Shown here one piece after another: positions 3,590 to 14,473 of a stretch of 16,116 nucleotides of DNA. The notes under the pieces were generated by a model. The model was given only the letters and a program-made list of their open reading frames with translations. It was not told the origin of the DNA and searched no databases. The position numbers were made by a program, and so were the translations under genes. This DNA comes from Candidatus Limnocylindrus sp. (GTDB taxonomy: Bacteria; Chloroflexota; Limnocylindria; Limnocylindrales; Limnocylindraceae), in contig JBBAWM010000009.1 of assembly GCA_040397175.1 (NCBI GenBank), positions 1-16,116 of the forward strand. The letters run 5' to 3'. Numbering within the stretch: position 1 is the stretch's first letter; each line of letters starts with the position of its first letter.

Positions 3590-3660
3590 AGTTTGCAACG
3601 ACTTGGCAACAGCCGCCTGAAACTGCAAGATCAGGCGCTAAAGCACGCTATAATTGAACT
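3590..3660 (+). promoter_or_regulatory. Repeated promoter P3 (boxes inverted)
   Basis: GCAAC ending at 3599 and 3610. TATAAT at 3649-3654. Shares gcacgctataattgaact with P2. Confidence 0.8.
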
Positions 3661-3684
3661 AAGACATCTACGAAAGGACATCTC

Positions 3685-5472
3685 ATGACACACTTCGGAA
3701 CCTCCGGACACACCAAGGTCGACGCCCCCGAGTGGCTCAAGGTCGGCTCGGCCATCAGCTCACTCGTAAACGACTGGTCGCTACGCAGCGACCTCATCGT
3801 TCGCGTCGGACCAAACGAGAGCGCGCCGGCCCCGGCACTCTTCAACCCGGCCCTGGCCGAGGTAGAGGTCAACACCGTTCACGCCTTCGGTCCGTCCATC
3901 GAGCCCGAGCTCGTCGGAGACCTGACCGACCGCGACACCCAGTTCGACTGGCCAAAGGCCACCGGCGCGATCTTCCACGAGGCCCTGCACGCCCGCTTCA
4001 CTCAGTTCAGTCTGCAGGCCATCGCAGACGCCCTGCCTGCGGGACCGCTGGCTGCCCTGCACCTGCTAGAGGAGTCGCGCATCGAGGGACTCGGCGTTCG
4101 CGCCATGCCGTCCAACCGTGGCTTCTTGCGAGCCTGCGCCCTGGAGATCGTCCTCGGCGACCTGACCGCAGAGAAGCTGGCCGAGCAGGGACACACCCGC
4201 GCCGTCGCCCACGTCGCCGGACTCACCCTCGCCCGCGTCGACGCCGGAGTGCTTGAGCGCTCAGACGTCGAGTCGGTTGCCGAGTACGTCGAGACCTTCT
4301 TGGGCGAGGAGCTACTGGAGAAGCTGCGCGACATCTGGACCGAGTTCCAGGCGCACGCCAAGCACTCGTCTCACCACGAACTAATGCCACTCGCCATCGA
4401 GTGGGACCGACTCGTCACCGAGGAGTCGGAGAAGCGCGGCGAACCGCAGCCGGGCTCAGGTCCGGGACAGGACGTCATCGACGCGATCAGGGAGATGCTC
4501 GAGAAGCTGGCTGACGACGCCGGAGCCGCCGCCATCGGTGCCGGAGACGAGCTGGGCGACCAGCAGCAGTCCGAGGAGTGGAGCCGCGAGGTCAACGCCC
4601 GAGGCAAGGACTCACGCCAGCGCCAGCAGCACAAGGCCGAGGCCGCCAGGATCTTCGACAAGGGCACCGGCCCGGGCGAGAGCAAGAGTCGCTCAAAGTT
4701 GATCGAGCGTCGCCAGCCGTCCGGCGAGGAGCGAGCCGCTGCCGTCCAGGTGGCGAGACTGCTCGAGAAGGCCAAGTACCGCGACCGCTCGATGACCGAG
4801 GTCAACAGCGTGACCCCTCCAGGTCGCCTGAGAACCGGCGCGATGGTCCAGGCTGCCGCACTCAAGACCAAGGGCGTTCGCGCCCAGGTCGAGCCGTGGC
4901 GAGCCACCAAGCGCAAGCACACCGAGGACCCGGAGCTGAAGGTCGGCGTCATGGTCGACATCTCCGGCTCGATGGGCGGAGCGATGACTCCGATGGCCGT
5001 GACGGCCTGGGTCATGTCCGAGGCGGTCCACCGCATCCAGGGCAAGGCCTCGATGGTCTACTACGGCAACGACGTCTTCGCGACCCTGAAGCCAGGCCAG
5101 CACCTGCGCGAGGTCAACGTGTACTCGGCCCAGGACGGCACCGAGCAGTTCGACAAGGCGTTCAAGGCACTCGACGGCTCGATGAACCTCCTGCAGGGCT
5201 CTGGAGCCCGTCTGCTGGTCGTCGTGTCAGACGGCGAGTACGTGCAGGAGGAGAGACAGGCGGCGAAGCAGTGGATGCTCGCGTGCGAGCGCGCCGGAGT
5301 GGCGATCCTCTGGATCAAGTTCGACAGTCGAAACGGCAACCCTGAGCGCTTCTTGAACGGCACGTCCGGCGAGGTCGTCGTGTCAGACGGCGTCGCGTCG
5401 AAGGTCGCCAAGACCATCGGCGAGGCTGCCGCCCGGGCCCTGACCAAGGTCGGAGCCAAACAGGCGCGCTAA
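3685..5472 (+). CDS. CobT/NorD-like VWA-domain protein with N-terminal HEXXH motif (MoxR partner)
   Basis: FHEALH...LEESRIE in the N-terminal domain, low-complexity linker, MIDAS DISGSM, GTE and VVSDG in the C-terminal VWA. Adjacent to the MoxR ATPase. Confidence 0.88.
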   Translation: MTHFGTSGHTKVDAPEWLKVGSAISSLVNDWSLRSDLIVRVGPNESAPAPALFNPALAEVEVNTVHAFGPSIEPELVGDLTDRDTQFDWPKATGAIFHEALHARFTQFSLQAIADALPAGPLAALHLLEESRIEGLGVRAMPSNRGFLRACALEIVLGDLTAEKLAEQGHTRAVAHVAGLTLARVDAGVLERSDVESVAEYVETFLGEELLEKLRDIWTEFQAHAKHSSHHELMPLAIEWDRLVTEESEKRGEPQPGSGPGQDVIDAIREMLEKLADDAGAAAIGAGDELGDQQQSEEWSREVNARGKDSRQRQQHKAEAARIFDKGTGPGESKSRSKLIERRQPSGEERAAAVQVARLLEKAKYRDRSMTEVNSVTPPGRLRTGAMVQAAALKTKGVRAQVEPWRATKRKHTEDPELKVGVMVDISGSMGGAMTPMAVTAWVMSEAVHRIQGKASMVYYGNDVFATLKPGQHLREVNVYSAQDGTEQFDKAFKALDGSMNLLQGSGARLLVVVSDGEYVQEERQAAKQWMLACERAGVAILWIKFDSRNGNPERFLNGTSGEVVVSDGVASKVAKTIGEAAARALTKVGAKQAR

Positions 5473-5477
5473 AAGCT

Positions 5478-5548
5478 GTTGCCAATCTGTTGCAAAGAAC
5501 TTTGGCAAATTGGCATGATTTGGGCAATTGGCGTGCTATAATTAAAGT
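5478..5548 (+). promoter_or_regulatory. Repeated promoter P4
   Basis: GTTGC at 5478 and 5489. TGcTATAAT (5537-5542). ATG at 5549. Confidence 0.8.
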
Positions 5549-5629
5549 ATGCACCAAGCAGTCGACCTCGGTTGACTGGCCACAGGCGGCCAACCGGCAG
5601 TCTGTCCGAAACGACAAAAGGACACTACC

Positions 5630-6085: not shown

Positions 6086-6367
6086 ATGATCTACGACGAC
6101 CACAAGACCCAGCGGCTCTCCCCGGTGCCCGGCACGAACAAGCGCATCGGCGTGGAGCACCTCATCACCATTGACCGGTTCTGGTTCTCGAACCGCGCCG
6201 GTCTACGCATCGGCGTTCCCCTCGCGACCATCGAGGCCCAGACGTTCGAGAACGACTTCCGCCTGGAGATTCACAACGGAAGCTCGGCCGGCGCGGTGTA
6301 CACCAACGCCAGCTACGACGCCCTGCTCCAGGTCCTGCTGCTCGCCGTCAACCACGGCAAGCGGTAG
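6086..6367 (+). CDS. Hypothetical protein
   Basis: 93 aa, AAAGGAC RBS, gene-like codon usage. Confidence 0.75.
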   Translation: MIYDDHKTQRLSPVPGTNKRIGVEHLITIDRFWFSNRAGLRIGVPLATIEAQTFENDFRLEIHNGSSAGAVYTNASYDALLQVLLLAVNHGKR

Positions 6368-6375
6368 CCCAAGAC

Positions 6376-6460
6376 GTCCGCGGCGTTTGTTTGTCCTTTC
6401 CCCGCGGACATGGCCCGGCCAGCTCGAGACTACTCGTTGGCCGGGCCACCCAACTTCCCC
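6376..6460 (+). ncRNA. Candidate structured 3'-UTR RNA with anti-RBS loop
   Basis: gtccgcgg/ccgcggac stem with loop cgtttgtttgtcctttcc, then a 13-bp stem at 6411-6448 and a cttcccc tail. Confidence 0.45.
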
Positions 6461-6465
6461 AATCG

Positions 6466-6492
6466 CGCGGAGCGGCGCGGTAGGATCAGATC
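6466..6492 (+). promoter_or_regulatory. Putative class II promoter of methyltransferase
   Basis: CGCGGAG-cgg-CGCGG-TAGGAT (6481-6486), same layout as 195-213. Confidence 0.45.
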
Positions 6493-6534
6493 GCAACCGG
6501 CACGCTCGCGGAGCGGCCAGAGAAGGAGAGACGC

Positions 6535-7038
6535 ATGCCAAATTTTGGAGGCGAGAGCTCGGTCAGCGGCACGGTCGTGTGGCTGACGCCGCCCTACATC
6601 ATCGAGGCCCTGGGCCAGTTCGACCTGGACCCGTGCGCGCCCGCTGCCGGGGAGAGACCGTTTGAGACGGCCGCGAGCTACTGGACCGAGGCCGACGACG
6701 GCCTGGTGCAGCCCTGGCACGGACGCGTCTGGATGAACCCGCCCTACGGCCCGGGCATGGTCAAGTGGCTCACGAAGCTCGCGACGCACGGAGACGGCTA
6801 CGCGCTGGTCTTCGCGCGGACGGAGACGCGGGCGTTCTTCGACGGCGTGTGGGACCACGCGGACGCGCTCTTCTTCTTCAAGGGCAGACTCAAGTTTCAC
6901 CGACCAGACGGCACGCCCGGCGCGGCCTGCCAGTCGCCGTCGGTGCTCGCGGCCTACGGCTCGCGGAACGTCGCGGCCCTGGAAGACGCGGTCGCCTCCG
7001 GCAAGCTCGTCGGCAAGCTCGTCTACCTGAAGCAGTAG
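6535..7038 (+). CDS. Phage DNA N6-adenine methyltransferase (Dam-like, PF05869 type)
   Basis: WLTP, FDLDPCA, DGLVQPWHGRVWMNPPY catalytic motif, ARTET, GRLKF. SD AGAAGGAG. Confidence 0.88.
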   Translation: MPNFGGESSVSGTVVWLTPPYIIEALGQFDLDPCAPAAGERPFETAASYWTEADDGLVQPWHGRVWMNPPYGPGMVKWLTKLATHGDGYALVFARTETRAFFDGVWDHADALFFFKGRLKFHRPDGTPGAACQSPSVLAAYGSRNVAALEDAVASGKLVGKLVYLKQ

Positions 7039-7180: not shown

Positions 7181-7251
7181 GTTGCGAAGTTGTTGCGAAG
7201 AGATTTGCCAAAAGTGGGCAATTATAGAGATTCATGCGCTATAATTAGAGT
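7181..7251 (+). promoter_or_regulatory. Repeated promoter P5
   Basis: GTTGCGAAG direct repeat at 7181 and 7192. TATAAT at 7240-7245. ATG at 7252. Confidence 0.85.
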
Positions 7252-7653
7252 ATGACAAACACAACGACAACCCTCGAAATCACCTGGACCGGCAACGAGC
7301 ACCTACCTGCCAAGTACCAGACGTCAGGCAAGCACACAAGCAGCCTGGCCGTAGCAGTCCACCACGACGGCAACGACCTAAGCCTCTGCGAGCGCGTGTT
7401 CGAAGAGACCAACCTCTATCAGGGCGAGCTCTGGGACCGCATCCAGCCGCTACTGCCTGACACTCGCACCCACACGGCCCTGAGCGTCGGAGACCTGGTT
7501 CGCATCGACGACCGCGTGTACAAGTGCGCGAACATCGGCTTCAAGTTGATCGAGGAGGCCGGCCGAACAGTTTACAACGTCTCGAGCGGGCACTTCACCG
7601 GTGCCGGGATCTGCGAGACCTGCGGCCCTCTCTGCGACGACGACGACGAATAG
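7252..7653 (+). CDS. YodL-like domain protein (leaderless)
   Basis: HTALSVGDLVRIDDRVYKCANIGF resembles the YodL S(L/M)SVGDVV...Y....GF motif. The C-terminus has CxxC..C. Confidence 0.7.
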   Translation: MTNTTTTLEITWTGNEHLPAKYQTSGKHTSSLAVAVHHDGNDLSLCERVFEETNLYQGELWDRIQPLLPDTRTHTALSVGDLVRIDDRVYKCANIGFKLIEEAGRTVYNVSSGHFTGAGICETCGPLCDDDDE

Positions 7654-7655
7654 TC

Positions 7656-7726
7656 GTTGCCGAACTGTTGCGGCGAATCCGGTCAAAAGTGGCCGGATCT
7701 GCCCGACAACATGCTATAATAGAACT
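7656..7726 (+). promoter_or_regulatory. Repeated promoter P6
   Basis: GTTGC at 7656 and 7667. TGcTATAAT at 7715-7720. ATG at 7727. Confidence 0.8.
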
Positions 7727-7786
7727 ATGAGCAAAACACTCGACCGGCCAGGCGGACCCTGGAGCTAGCAAAGGACACCACCGCTT

Positions 7787-8152: not shown

Positions 8153-8241
8153 GCCACCGCTGCGGCTGCCCGGTCGAGACTGACCGGGCGTGCCGGACGG
8201 CGAACCACCACCACCGACAACCAAACTACGAAGGGACACAC

Positions 8242-8445: not shown

Positions 8446-8454
8446 TCCAGGACC

Positions 8455-8526
8455 GTTGCGAAACCGTTGCCGAGAACTTTTTGGCAAACTGGCCGATCTG
8501 GCCAAACTGTGTAGTATAATTGAACT
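8455..8526 (+). promoter_or_regulatory. Repeated promoter P7
   Basis: GTTGC at 8455 and 8466. TATAAT at 8515-8520 (49-bp offset). ATG at 8527. Confidence 0.8.
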
Positions 8527-8550
8527 ATGGACATCAACGAAAGGATACAA

Positions 8551-8981: not shown

Positions 8982-9367
8982 CATACGAAGATCCAACCAC
9001 CACCAAGGTCCACGCCACCAGCACGGAGGCGACCTACCCGAACGCAGTCAACGGACCGTGGGAGACCCGGGTCGAGGAGTTCGAGTGGGAGGCCAGTGCG
9101 GGCAGGGGGACGCGATACCGCGTCCGGGCCCACAACGGCGGCTACCCGTCGCAGCTCGGCATGATCGTCGAGACGCTCGAGGAGGCCCTGGACCAGCTGG
9201 TCGAGCAGGAGCGGCGAGTCCGCGAGTCCGGCGTCAGCGCCGAGACCCCGCGCCTCGGACGTTGTAGCTGCGGCACGGAGGTGCCGACCGAGCGACTGAT
9301 GCGCTGGTCGCAGCGACCGTTCTCCAAGTTTGAAGACAACTACGACGGCTGCCGGGGCTGGGACTGA
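8978..9367 (+). CDS. Hypothetical protein
   Basis: GTGA overlap, ACGAAGGGAC RBS, 129 aa, C-terminal CSC...YDGCRGWD. Confidence 0.75.
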   Translation: MTYEDPTTTKVHATSTEATYPNAVNGPWETRVEEFEWEASAGRGTRYRVRAHNGGYPSQLGMIVETLEEALDQLVEQERRVRESGVSAETPRLGRCSCGTEVPTERLMRWSQRPFSKFEDNYDGCRGWD

Positions 9368-9651
9368 TGCGGCTTCGCGTCGCCCTCGGGTCCGTCATCC
9401 GAGAGGTGAGACTGGCGAGAGGCCTGACGCTCCGAGACGTGAGCGTGCGCGGAACGGTCGCGCTCGGCTACGTCAGCGAGCTCGAGCGGGGACAGAAGGA
9501 GGCGAGCTCGGAGATACTCGAGCAGATCGCCCGGGCCCTGGACGTGCCGGTCAGCGACCTGGTCGTCGAGGCCGGTCGCCGGATGGCCGAGTATGACCTC
9601 GGACTCTGGTACGACCTTGACCTGGACGAGCTGCTGCTCGCGCACAAGTAA
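9367..9651 (+). CDS. clgR: ClgR-like XRE-family helix-turn-helix regulator
   Basis: LGSVIREVRLARGLTLRDVS...VALGYVSELERGQKEASSEIL..IARALDV closely follows the actinobacterial ClgR signature (TLREVS...VSLGYLSEVERGQKEASSELL). Confidence 0.8.
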   Translation: MRLRVALGSVIREVRLARGLTLRDVSVRGTVALGYVSELERGQKEASSEILEQIARALDVPVSDLVVEAGRRMAEYDLGLWYDLDLDELLLAHK

Positions 9652-9657
9652 ATAGAC

Positions 9658-9772
9658 TCGCGACGCCCTTCCCCCTTTGGCGCGTCGCGACCGGGCCGGA
9701 GACTTCCCCTTTTGTCCGGCCCCTGAGCCCCCGGTAGTTACTGTCCTTTCGACCGGGGGCTCACCCCTCTCC
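9658..9772 (+). ncRNA. Candidate small RNA or 3'-UTR: three tandem hairpins with anti-SD loops
   Basis: Perfect stems at 9658-9690 (9 bp), 9693-9722 (8 bp) and 9724-9763 (12 bp). Loops ccttccccctttggc, gacttccccttttg and agttactgtcctttcg. Strand inferred from the upstream operon. Confidence 0.55.
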
Positions 9773-9792
9773 CGGCAAACTCCCGGGCAAAC

Positions 9793-9863
9793 GTTGCGAT
9801 GCTGTTGCCAAGAACTTTTGCGTTTTGGCATGATTTGGGCAGATCATGCGCTATAATTGAACT
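9793..9863 (+). promoter_or_regulatory. Repeated promoter P8
   Basis: GTTGC at 9793 and 9804. TATAAT at 9852-9857. ATG at 9864. Confidence 0.85.
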
Positions 9864-9934
9864 ATGAGCAAATGAATGAGTTTGCTCAGACGGCCAGGCG
9901 GCTCCCTGGACAATGACAAAAGGACAACACAAAC

Positions 9935-10180
9935 ATGAGCGCAAGCAAGTGGGTTCTACTGAACACCAGCGACGGATCACGTGGCGAAAACGGCAAGCAG
10001 AAGGTATACGAGGTGCTGGTCACCGGCACCACCGTCACCTTCACCTGGGGCATGGCTGAGAAGACCAGCCGCCAGAGCAAGACCCAGACCACCTGGTCAG
10101 AGGGCTCGGCTCGACAGGTCGCCCTCGATCAGGTCTACGCCAAGATGGCCAAGGGATACCGCCTGGCCTACTCGGCCTAG
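9935..10180 (+). CDS. WGR-like domain protein (paralog 1)
   Basis: KVYEVLVTGTTVTFTWGM...AKMAKGY fits the WGR fold pattern (K.Y.I......V...WGR...K..KGY). Confidence 0.75.
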   Translation: MSASKWVLLNTSDGSRGENGKQKVYEVLVTGTTVTFTWGMAEKTSRQSKTQTTWSEGSARQVALDQVYAKMAKGYRLAYSA

Positions 10181-10188
10181 CCACCCCG

Positions 10189-10220
10189 GCTGCGGGGCCC
10201 TGGAGACAGGGCCCTGCGGC
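10189..10220 (+). terminator. GAGA-loop hairpin (terminator or stability element)
   Basis: gctgcggggccctg-GAGA-cagggccctgcggc. No U tract. Confidence 0.45.
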
Positions 10221-10263
10221 AACACCCCACCCACCCACCCACCCACTACAGAAGGACACAACG

Positions 10264-10662: not shown

Positions 10663-10671
10663 CCGGCAACC

Positions 10672-10731
10672 GTTGCAGAGCTGTTGCTCAAACATGGGCA
10701 AAACTCCCAGATCATGCGCTATAATTGAAGT
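10672..10731 (+). promoter_or_regulatory. Repeated promoter P9
   Basis: GTTGC at 10672 and 10683. TATAAT at 10720-10725. ATG at 10732. Confidence 0.8.
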
Positions 10732-10923
10732 ATGACAACAACCATCGAGTGCAAGGACTGCAAGAAGTCGATCACCAGGGTCTGCCGTCGCTGCAAGGAG
10801 GACGCTGAGTTCTACGAGGACTGCTGGGAGTGCGGCAAGAAGACCCTCAAGGAGAACCTGAGCGTCTGCGACAACTGCCCGGCGTGCGAGGACGATCACG
10901 ACTGCAACGAGTACGACCGCTAG
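10732..10923 (+). CDS. Cysteine-rich double zinc-ribbon-like protein (leaderless)
   Basis: 63 aa with 10 Cys, including four CxxC pairs. Confidence 0.75.
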   Translation: MTTTIECKDCKKSITRVCRRCKEDAEFYEDCWECGKKTLKENLSVCDNCPACEDDHDCNEYDR

Positions 10924-10942: not shown

Positions 10943-11002
10943 GTTGCAAAGAGTATGCGGCAAATGACGCAAAGCGTCAATGCCACGTGCTATAATTGAA
11001 TA
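10943..11002 (+). promoter_or_regulatory. Repeated promoter P10
   Basis: GTTGC at 10943. TGcTATAAT at 10991-10996. Confidence 0.8.
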
Positions 11003-11428: not shown

Positions 11429-11520
11429 ATGCCCCGGGACTGCACGGAGCGGCGACCATCACTCGAGGGCTGAGAGTGCCGGGCGCTGCGCCCGGAGCGC
11501 CCTCGCGACGAGTCCAAATC

Positions 11521-11580
11521 GTTGCAAACTAATTTCGCAAACCAGGCTGATCTGGACCGTCAACGCGCTATAATTGAAGT
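11521..11580 (+). promoter_or_regulatory. Repeated promoter P11
   Basis: GTTGC at 11521. TATAAT at 11569-11574. ATG at 11581. Confidence 0.8.
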
Positions 11581-11826
11581 ATGACAACTATCACAAAGAC
11601 ACCCGCAGAAATCGTTCGCGCCGAGTACGGAGCCATCGTCGGAAAGCGCGTCCTAGACGTGCGGCCCCTGACCGCTGCCGAGCTCAGCGACCTCGCCTGG
11701 GACGACAGTTCCGGCACCATCCCGCTCGTCATCTTCTTCGAGGACGGCAAGGCCCTCATCCCGAGCATGGACCCGGAGGGCAACGGACCGGGACACCTGT
11801 TCATCGACGACTGGAAGCGCGCTTGA
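11581..11826 (+). CDS. Hypothetical protein (leaderless)
   Basis: 81 aa with C-terminal PSMDPEGNGPGHLF motif and gene-like codons. Confidence 0.8.
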   Translation: MTTITKTPAEIVRAEYGAIVGKRVLDVRPLTAAELSDLAWDDSSGTIPLVIFFEDGKALIPSMDPEGNGPGHLFIDDWKRA

Positions 11827-12523: not shown

Positions 12524-12561
12524 GAGAGAACCCCCTGGCTTCTGCCAGGGGGTCTCTTCTT
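12524..12561. terminator. Bidirectional terminator between convergent genes
   Basis: accccctggc-ttct-gccagggggt flanked by gagaga and ctcttctt. Confidence 0.7.
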
Positions 12562-12834: not shown

Positions 12835-12894
12835 GTTTCAATTATAGCACATGATTCGCCACCAGGGCCCCAGTTTGGCAACTTTGATTGCAAC
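12835..12894 (-). promoter_or_regulatory. Repeated promoter P12 (divergent)
   Basis: Minus-strand GTTGC begins at 12894. TGcTATAAT at 12846-12841 (48-bp offset). Confidence 0.8.
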
Positions 12895-12900
12895 AAAGTT

Positions 12901-12960
12901 GTTGCAATGAATTATGCGCAAATGGGCTGAAAACGTCAATACTAGCGCTATAATTATTAC
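12901..12960 (+). promoter_or_regulatory. Repeated promoter P13
   Basis: GTTGC at 12901. TATAAT at 12949-12954. Confidence 0.8.
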
Positions 12961-13282: not shown

Positions 13283-13312
13283 ACCGGGAGCGGACTCGCT
13301 CCCGGTCTTCTC
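13283..13312 (+). terminator. Intrinsic terminator
   Basis: accgggagcg-gact-cgctcccggt then cttctc. Confidence 0.65.
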
Positions 13313-14414: not shown

Positions 14415-14473
14415 TTACAGAAACGTTGCGCTAAATGTCGCGCTTCTGCCAGCTCTTATGCTATAATTGAAGT
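14414..14473 (+). promoter_or_regulatory. Repeated promoter P14
   Basis: GTTAC at 14414 (48-bp offset) and GTTGC at 14425. TGcTATAAT at 14462-14467. Confidence 0.75.

Follow-up and report, generated by a model that had tools for sequence, protein, structure and literature searches.

6C RNAs are defined by two hairpins, each with six or more C residues in its loop. In Actinobacteria, the C-rich loops of these GC-rich hairpins pair with G-rich ribosome-binding sites (RBSs) without a chaperone, and in mycobacteria repression at the panD RBS AGGGGGG was shown experimentally, overexpression of 6C arresting growth (PMC6486639). The sX13 RNA of Xanthomonadaceae has three stable stems, their apical loops being C-rich (4C, 4C and 5C), besides a 5' part that is unstructured; it does not depend on Hfq to repress its target mRNAs, in which G-rich motifs lie close to the start codon (PMC3771888). 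Phages P1 and P7 have the c4 antisense RNA, whose loops complement the RBS region in one of the phage's own messages and prevent that message from being translated (PMC12197685). Pairing from a 3' end is described for S. aureus icaR, where a C-rich UCCCCUG in the 3'-UTR pairs with its own mRNA's Shine-Dalgarno (SD) region and blocks initiation (PMC3868564); pairing of this type also yields a substrate for RNase III. RNAIII and the cuckoo/alpha-r14 family carry a UCCC or CCUCCUCCC motif in several hairpin loops of one RNA (PMC4615179), and a study of E. coli reports that the loops of sRNA terminator hairpins are used as pairing sites, the sRNAs being enterobacterial and Hfq-dependent (PMC11979758). 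Antisense seeds in hairpin loops are a known principle; the hairpins described here, with constant loops carried on variable stems, would be a further form of it. In the literature covered, which is that outside subscription journals, hairpins like these have not been described from actinobacterial phages, and we found no regulatory RNA reported for phages of small-genome lake actinobacteria. To our knowledge, few phage-encoded regulatory RNAs have been characterised at all.

The locus analysed in this work lies in a window (the whole stretch of DNA studied, 16,116 bp) that is the complete contig C9 of an actinobacterial genome bin of 1.38 Mb and 30 contigs. The G+C content of C9 is that of the bin, 63.6%. 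The motif GCTATAAT is present in 12 copies in C9, in one copy in C6 and in none of the remaining 28 contigs, which makes C9 the only contig of the bin rich in it. The gene content is phage-like: a MoxR-type AAA ATPase adjoins a VWA protein; a Dam methylase and an NlpC/P60 tail-lysin domain are also encoded; and small ORFs are numerous. The closest named relative is the metagenome-assembled Actinomycetia phage DSL-LC01 (129 kb), which has the same ATPase/VWA pair, and a DNA-level distant search of the phage collection gave a coding match to DSL-LC01 as its sole match. The window, which the initial annotation had ascribed to a phage, is indeed a phage contig related to DSL-LC01 that was co-binned with an actinobacterial genome, and that genome may be the host of the phage.

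The element starts 7 nt 3' of the stop codon of a ClgR-like gene, directly after it as initially described, and about 30 nt separate its end from the promoter module that follows (Table 1). The best NCBIfam match of this gene is ClgR (NF041677), with 85.5 bits, under the 170 cut-off of that family. A perfect-stem script returned the three back-to-back perfect GC stems of the initial annotation within 9658-9763, which measure 9, 8 and 12 bp and enclose 15, 14 and 16 nt of loop, respectively. The RNAfold analysis that had been suggested as a check gave the same picture: in the plus-strand fold of 9645-9800 hairpins 1-3 all form, hairpin 1 with two extra inner pairs, together with the hairpin at 9771-9787, and the minimum free energy is -70.3 kcal/mol compared with -51.3 +/- 3.7 kcal/mol for 200 shuffled sequences, none of which is as stable (z -5.18). 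We propose, with confidence that is evenly balanced, that the 3' untranslated/terminator region of the ClgR-like operon holds, in this element, a conserved structure predicted for plus-strand RNA. Its loops likely are antisense seeds that base-pair to ribosome-binding leaders and thereby prevent initiation.

Table 1. Features of the window that bear on the hairpin element
Feature	Coordinates	Strand	Description
Hairpin 1	9658-9690	+	9-bp stem TCGCGACGC/GCGTCGCGA; 15-nt loop CCUUCCCCCUUUGGC, C-rich seed
Hairpin 2	9693-9722	+	8-bp stem GGGCCGGA/TCCGGCCC; 14-nt loop GACUUCCCCUUUUG, C-rich seed
Hairpin 3	9724-9763	+	11-12 bp stem; 16-nt loop AGUUACUGUCCUUUCG, antisense of phage leader/RBS CGAAAGGACA
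Hairpin 4 (small)	9771-9787	+	CCCGG/CCGGG; loosely retained in relatives
ClgR-like XRE-family HTH gene	9367-9651	+	Last gene of the operon ending at the element; Pfam HTH_3, E 1.5e-11
RBS CGAAAGGAUA	8538-8547	+	Serves the first gene of the operon ending at the element, the promoter of which has its -10 at 8515; pairs with loop 3 with one G.U
VWA gene	3685-5472	+	Exact CGAAAGGACA at 3671-3680 is its RBS
WGR-domain gene	9935-10180	+	Downstream of the element; leader/RBS GACAAAAGGACA at 9915-9926
Dam methylase gene	6535-7038		Region 6460-6540 upstream
Second-locus hairpin	6376-6409	+	8-bp stem, loop CGUUUGUUUGUCCUUUCC, anti-RBS at 9 of 10 positions; 9 nt after stop at 6367
Neighbouring hairpin	6411-6448	+	13 bp, apical UCGAGACUACUC; then unpaired CUUCCCC at 6454-6460
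Promoter module next after the element	9793-9866	+	Opens the next transcription unit
Promoter modules, first part	558-631, 1940-1984, 3620-3664, 5478-5551, 7181-7254, 7686-7730, 8454-8529		Two GTTGC boxes, then GCTATAATTGAAnTATGA
Promoter modules, rest	9793-9866, 10669-10735, 10969-11000, 11510-11583, 12901-12956, 14440-14471		Two GTTGC boxes, then GCTATAATTGAAnTATGA
Promoter module, minus strand	near 12846	-	

Compared with the described systems, the element is an analogue, not a member, of sX13 and 6C, because both Rfam scores are below threshold: sX13 (RF02232) aligns over its whole model (positions 1-115 of 115 on 9645-9767) with 28.9 bits and E 0.00062 for a gathering score of 50, and 6C (RF01066) gives 21.9 bits and E 0.62 for a gathering score of 47. 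Set beside the three stems of sX13 and their 4C, 4C and 5C loops, the element has three stems, with 5C and 4C in loops 1 and 2 and only CC in loop 3; sX13 belongs to another phylum and is a free-standing gene beside polA, whereas no promoter or U tail is seen for the element (PMC3771888). The 6C RNA comes from the phylum of the presumed host, and its C-rich loops have their likeness in the CCCCC and CCCC of loops 1 and 2. The element differs from 6C in having loops of 4-5 rather than six or more C, in being phage-borne and in a 3'-UTR position, and in that its third loop is directed to the leader of the phage itself. The c4 RNA has one specific target operon; here the leader is common to many genes and the element lies at an operon 3' end, and the c4 family was absent from the Rfam matches to the element at E up to 10. 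Similarly, icaR is a single chromosomal gene with a long 3'-UTR, while the element is a tandem hairpin array of a phage and has relatives in which the loops stay constant and the stems vary. RNAIII and the cuckoo family resemble it in that several loops of one RNA carry an anti-SD-like motif, but the motifs CUUCCCC and UGUCCUUUCG of the element are not those of these families and there is no evident homology. The E. coli terminator loops share the use of a hairpin loop as pairing site and differ in belonging to Hfq-dependent enterobacterial sRNAs.

Loop 3 is complementary to the phage's own leader. The UGUCCUUUCG in this loop is the exact complement of CGAAAGGACA at 3671-3680, as had been pointed out from the start. 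Fourteen copies of this 10-mer with at most one mismatch are present in the window, for 1.0 +/- 1.0 expected. Twelve of them are on the plus strand, mostly just 5' of start codons and at least one of them inside a leader, and the two on the minus strand are both hairpin loops, at 9742-9751 and 6392-6401. Conversely, the three GTCCTTT of the plus strand correspond to two hairpin loops and to the RBS of one minus-strand gene. The mean duplex energy of loop 3 on 12 phage start regions is -12.0 kcal/mol, compared with -7.5 +/- 1.3 kcal/mol for shuffled loops, none of 100 being as low. It counts against the proposal as a whole that any pyrimidine-rich loop complements purine-rich SDs somewhat, whatever its selection. 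On host start sets loop 3 is at background level, and a search of the bin with up to 2 mismatches gave no target of the whole loop 3; for comparison, the 16S tail has a mean duplex energy of -8.5 kcal/mol with the start regions of the phage and of -12.8 kcal/mol with the G-rich ones of the host. As in c4, loops of a phage RNA are complementary to the ribosome-binding region of messages of the same phage, here exactly at 3671-3680 and with at most one mismatch at 12 plus-strand sites. As in icaR, loop 3 can also pair with the first RBS of its own operon. This same-operon site, which had been placed at 8539-8548, does pair with a single G.U but lies at 8538-8547 (CGAAAGGATA), and because of the promoter at 8515 we infer that it is on one transcript with loop 3, which makes loop 3 a candidate 3'-UTR anti-SD for the SD of the same mRNA.

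The start regions of the window suggest two kinds of message. The promoter module GTTGC..GTTGC..GCTATAATTGAACTATGA is present in at least 12 copies in these 16 kb. In about five genes an ATG is found 6-7 nt past the -10 box (1981, 7252, 10732, 11581 and, on the minus strand, 12834), and an ATG at this distance also opens several mini-ORFs of 3-13 codons (5549, 7727 and 9864). This proximity to the -10 box makes leaderless starts plausible and agrees with the leaderless genes announced in the initial annotation. The remaining genes of the window have a common leader, (A)AACGACGAAAGGAC(A). The ORF 1981-2523 has two possible in-frame starts, the leaderless ATG 1981 at the promoter and an ATG at about 2029 behind the leader AAAACGACGAAAGGAC. 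Upstream of the Dam methylase gene there are a -10-like TAGGAT of host type and an AAGGAG, the canonical SD, in place of the phage promoter and leader; this gene may be expressed under different rules. A 219-nt contig of a relative in the metatranscriptome run X20 (12 differences, span limited to 9897-10115) takes in the WGR-domain gene's leader and 5' half; its start is about 35 nt past the predicted start of the promoter at 9852.

Relatives of the element allow loops and stems to be compared, the triple array being known from two to three independent lineages only. In the metagenome contig L028, which encodes an HTH protein 80% identical to that of the window, the same array follows the same gene. 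One pair per stem is changed on both sides (three in all), hairpin 2 showing a compensatory C-G to U-A change, and in the alignment of L028 with the window 94% of cells are paired, compared with 32-52% after sliding of the partners. L028 has an identical loop 3, and its loop 2 retains CUUCCCCUUU, CUUCCCC being kept. In hairpin 1 the loop is replaced by a stem extension, which gives a longer stem and a 7-nt loop, so that loop 1 is not conserved at this greater distance. Closer relatives, about 90-95% alike, were found in the run contigs X3, X7, X8 and X14, which come from four studies, were aligned to 9630-9800 and represent perhaps two or three independent lineages. All four show zero differences within 9725-9762. 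Their loop 2 retains CUUCCCC and varies at its 3' end alone (UUUUG changed to UUUCG, or one extra C), and in their loop 1 the C5 run has become GCCCC, the loop reading CCUU(C/U)GCCCCUUUGUG. In hairpin 1, wobbles replace pairs at G9660.U (X7 and X8) and at U9664.G (X3 and X14), both of which would be A.C mismatches on the minus strand. Single-base indels at 9668/9671, 9713, 9720 and 9724 argue that the element is non-coding. Finally, in the viral contig L086/G001 the 16-nt loop recurs unchanged on another stem, of 13 bp, and this hairpin is 10 nt past a stop codon. Across the copies in the window, in L028 and in L086/G001, pairing of hairpin 3 is 100% and 3 pairs carry double changes; loop 3 is identical in 7 of 7 sequences (window, L028, L086, X3, X7, X8 and X14). 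Loops that drift while stems are kept had been named initially as evidence against the proposal; loops 2 and 3 do the opposite, being kept while the stems change, and loop 1 does vary.

Hairpins of similar design are found elsewhere in this phage group, in which the layout is constant: a stop codon, one or several hairpins, a promoter and a leader. In the window, the loop of a second locus (6376-6448) contains UGUCCUUUCC, although its hairpin 6376-6409 is absent from the minimum free energy fold of 6366-6475. Hairpins of the GUCCUUU type follow stop codons in DSL-LC01 (30146-30199, 16-bp stem) and twice in G001 (34420-34454 and 38248-38285), and the sole sense-strand GTCCTTT of DSL-LC01 is in the loop of hairpin 30146-30199. 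The upstream leader block AAACGACGAA has its antisense in a second constant loop, UUUCUUCGUCGUUU, with 13 of 14 positions paired including two G.U in a hand alignment. This second loop is borne by at least six unrelated GC stems after stop codons, among them DSL-LC01 41343-41376 and two in a three-hairpin array of G004, 9 nt past the stop of the ATPase gene and ahead of the VWA gene with its promoter and leader. In the part of the viral contigs that was scanned, 13 of the loop's 122 exact matches were in hairpins, including four further unrelated GC stems of 8-10 bp; by estimate, roughly 1000 viral stretches contain this loop type. Other searches were less productive. Of 33 exact matches to the loop 15-mer of hairpin 3 in viral contigs, one (L086) is in a hairpin with that loop; about ten of the others are opposite-strand RBSs and the rest are apparently due to chance. 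The covariance model R1, built from three copies of hairpin 3, matched its training copies alone (in the window, L028 and L086/G001) and is too stem-specific for the variants of DSL-LC01 or 6376. A scan for the two-loop pattern gave 9 viral and 120 genome loci, in diverse genomes of mostly low GC, and the hairpins of the element were in none of them.

Several additional hairpins were seen beside these. The apical U(C/U)GAGAC(U/C)ACUC of 6411-6448 is shared with L253 18994-19031 on the minus strand (G004 98994-99031), on unrelated 13-bp stems with a 3-bp extension and a 4-nt loop, in phages of 64% and 47% G+C; no complementary target of UYGAGACYACUC was found. Distant relatives of the HTH locus carry large pyrimidine-rich loops, ACCCCCCCUC on a 9-bp stem in L009 (2017-2044) and L010 (2017-2043), and UUUUUUAUCUCCAUUUCUCU on a 16-bp stem in L014 (2071-2122). 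A hairpin with a GUCCUUUU loop in L038-L041 was dropped, being inside the HTH coding region.

The location of these hairpins is also what could be expected of a multi-hairpin terminator or a 3'-end protection signal that serves the ClgR-like operon only and in which the loops have no pairing role. The element is 7 nt past a stop codon and just ahead of the next promoter, all the related hairpins are between stop codons and promoters, a U-rich run follows the third hairpin of the G004 array, and no promoter was seen in the sequence between the HTH gene and hairpin 1. A canonical intrinsic terminator, with a short loop of 3-8 nt and then a U-tract, is a different object: here the loops are 14-16 nt, the U-tract is absent after hairpin 3, which is followed by CCCCUCUCCC with no T run, and a terminator scan reported nothing at 9658-9772. 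The element may be a U-less actinobacterial terminator. However, the other operon-end hairpins folded in the contig (3555-3584, about 8160-8195, about 10186-10222, 12530-12553 and about 13283-13310) have loops of 4-6 nt, and among the hairpins folded large loops occur at two places only, the element and 6376-6448. This census of post-stop hairpins is incomplete and was made by manual inspection, because in this high-GC contig the automatic gene calls place spurious long ORFs over the element. Moreover, a terminator would not be expected to keep a 16-nt loop invariant in all seven sequences amid changing stems, nor to use two different constant loops both antisense to a shared leader. We consider this explanation unlikely, while giving it serious weight.

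A second alternative is that the element is a landing platform for a protein, either a rut site for Rho or a site for a phage or host RNA-binding protein, the complementarity to RBSs being a by-product. Rho prefers C-rich unstructured RNA, and the loops are 69-80% pyrimidine with many YC steps, in an untranslated RNA located directly past a stop codon without an intrinsic U-tract. Most of the element nevertheless consists of G-rich stems. Exact sequence conservation is not known for rut sites, whereas loop 3, with its 16 nt, does not vary and fits the leader at 10 of 10 positions, and loops of the second type fit a different stretch of that leader. These properties make a protein platform improbable.

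The other proposed target is the host. Loops 1 and 2 are the complement of AAGGGG(G). The initial annotation had paired them with AAAGGGG-type SD sequences, which is correct for the loop sequences but finds no target in the window, where the plus strand contains no AAAGGGG and one AAGGGG. On phage start regions both loops are at the level of shuffled loops (loop 1, -8.0 kcal/mol compared with -8.1 +/- 1.2, 50 of 100 as low; loop 2, -7.2 compared with -7.1 +/- 1.2, 45 of 100 as low). On host G-rich start regions they reach -17.2 kcal/mol (shuffled -14.9 +/- 1.1, 3 of 100 as low) and -14.2 kcal/mol (shuffled -10.8 +/- 1.4, 1 of 100 as low), respectively, values that are modest (z -2 to -2.5) in a test that is partly circular because the G-rich set was picked by motif. 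Hexamers of the bin were ranked by their enrichment 4-9 nt 5' of the ATG or GTG opening ORFs of at least 100 aa in contigs other than C9. The top hexamer is the leaderless -10 box TAGGAT (z 12.7), the presence of which at ORF starts points to leaderless genes in the bin. AGGGGG (75 of 590, z 8.8) ranks 2 of 3938, ahead of AGGAGG (z 7.4), and AAGGGG ranks 13, with the phage-type hexamers AAGGAC and AGGACA at ranks 1443 and 2409. The reverse is observed in the phage, as AAAGGA, AAGGAC and AGGACA lead in the window plus DSL-LC01, and AGGGGG and AAGGGG are rare. Extended targets for loops 1 and 2 in the bin amounted to only a few weak candidates. The bin also contains, at G000:C11:7342-7437, a sub-threshold 6C-like locus (26.8 bits, gathering 47) with seven C in its first loop, UAACUCCCCCCCU; it may be the host's own C-rich-loop sRNA.

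These observations bear on the strong form of the original proposal, a free-standing gene for a trans-acting sRNA that shuts off host translation. The alignment over the whole sX13 model and the complementarity of loops 1 and 2 to the G-rich SD type enriched in the bin favour it, and there is the precedent of mycobacterial 6C repressing the G-rich panD RBS (PMC6486639). Such a gene is nonetheless quite improbable here: neither a promoter nor a terminator tail is seen, loop 1 is variable, no extended host target was found in the bin, and the best-conserved loop targets the phage's own leader rather than that of the host. Of the initially proposed sRNA that occludes SD-led mRNAs, the structure, its conservation and the complementarity of the loops stand; an own promoter and a U-tract were not seen. 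Host shut-off by loops 1 and 2 would be deduced from a bin whose genome is only possibly that of the host.

The weakest alternative, in which the minus strand functions as a decoy for ribosomes or proteins with SD-like GGA loops (the CsrB-like variant initially envisaged) or the inverted repeats are DNA sites, is very improbable: the minus strand folds well too (z -3.05), but the wobbles G9660.U, U9664.G and a U.G of L086 work on the plus strand only and turn into A.C mismatches, the neighbouring genes and promoters are all on the plus strand, and the three repeats are not sites of one DNA-binding protein since they share no sequence.

We therefore return to a plus-strand 3'-end RNA with antisense loops, which likely damps translation by pairing, because its conserved open loops mirror ribosome-binding sequences. 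If the element is RNA, it would most simply be the 3' end of the transcript begun at the promoter near 8515, and may persist as a nuclease-resistant 3' fragment. The stems would hold pyrimidine-rich seeds open, and pairing of these seeds with purine-rich ribosome-binding leaders would block binding of the 30S subunit. Loop 3 would pair with SD-led phage messages, in trans if a stable 3' fragment acts on all leader-carrying messages; alternatively, it might act on the 5' leader of its own mRNA, in the manner of icaR, or in cis on the next leader when transcription reads through into the next unit. For loops 1 and 2 the partners would be G-rich SD sites of host type, and leaderless messages would escape pairing. 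The most ambitious version of this model is a three-seed phage RNA, in which loops 1 and 2 imitate a host 6C-type sRNA and silence host messages with G-rich SDs, loop 3 silences the phage's own leader-carrying early messages, and ribosomes are left to the leaderless messages, the RNA belonging to a broader group of anti-leader hairpins of freshwater actinophages, hitherto undescribed, that combine constant loops with variable stems. In this complete form we regard it as distinctly unlikely.

If the antisense reading is correct, these phages write into their operon ends an RNA 'off switch' for the ribosome-binding leader that their genes share, and the phage of the window also encodes seeds against the G-rich RBSs of its host. 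Such an RNA would be a counterpart of the protein translational repressors of T4-like phages, and it would offer a direct route to testing the balance between SD-led and leaderless translation during infection. The pattern of constant loops on variable stems is in itself a simple search rule for more elements of this kind.
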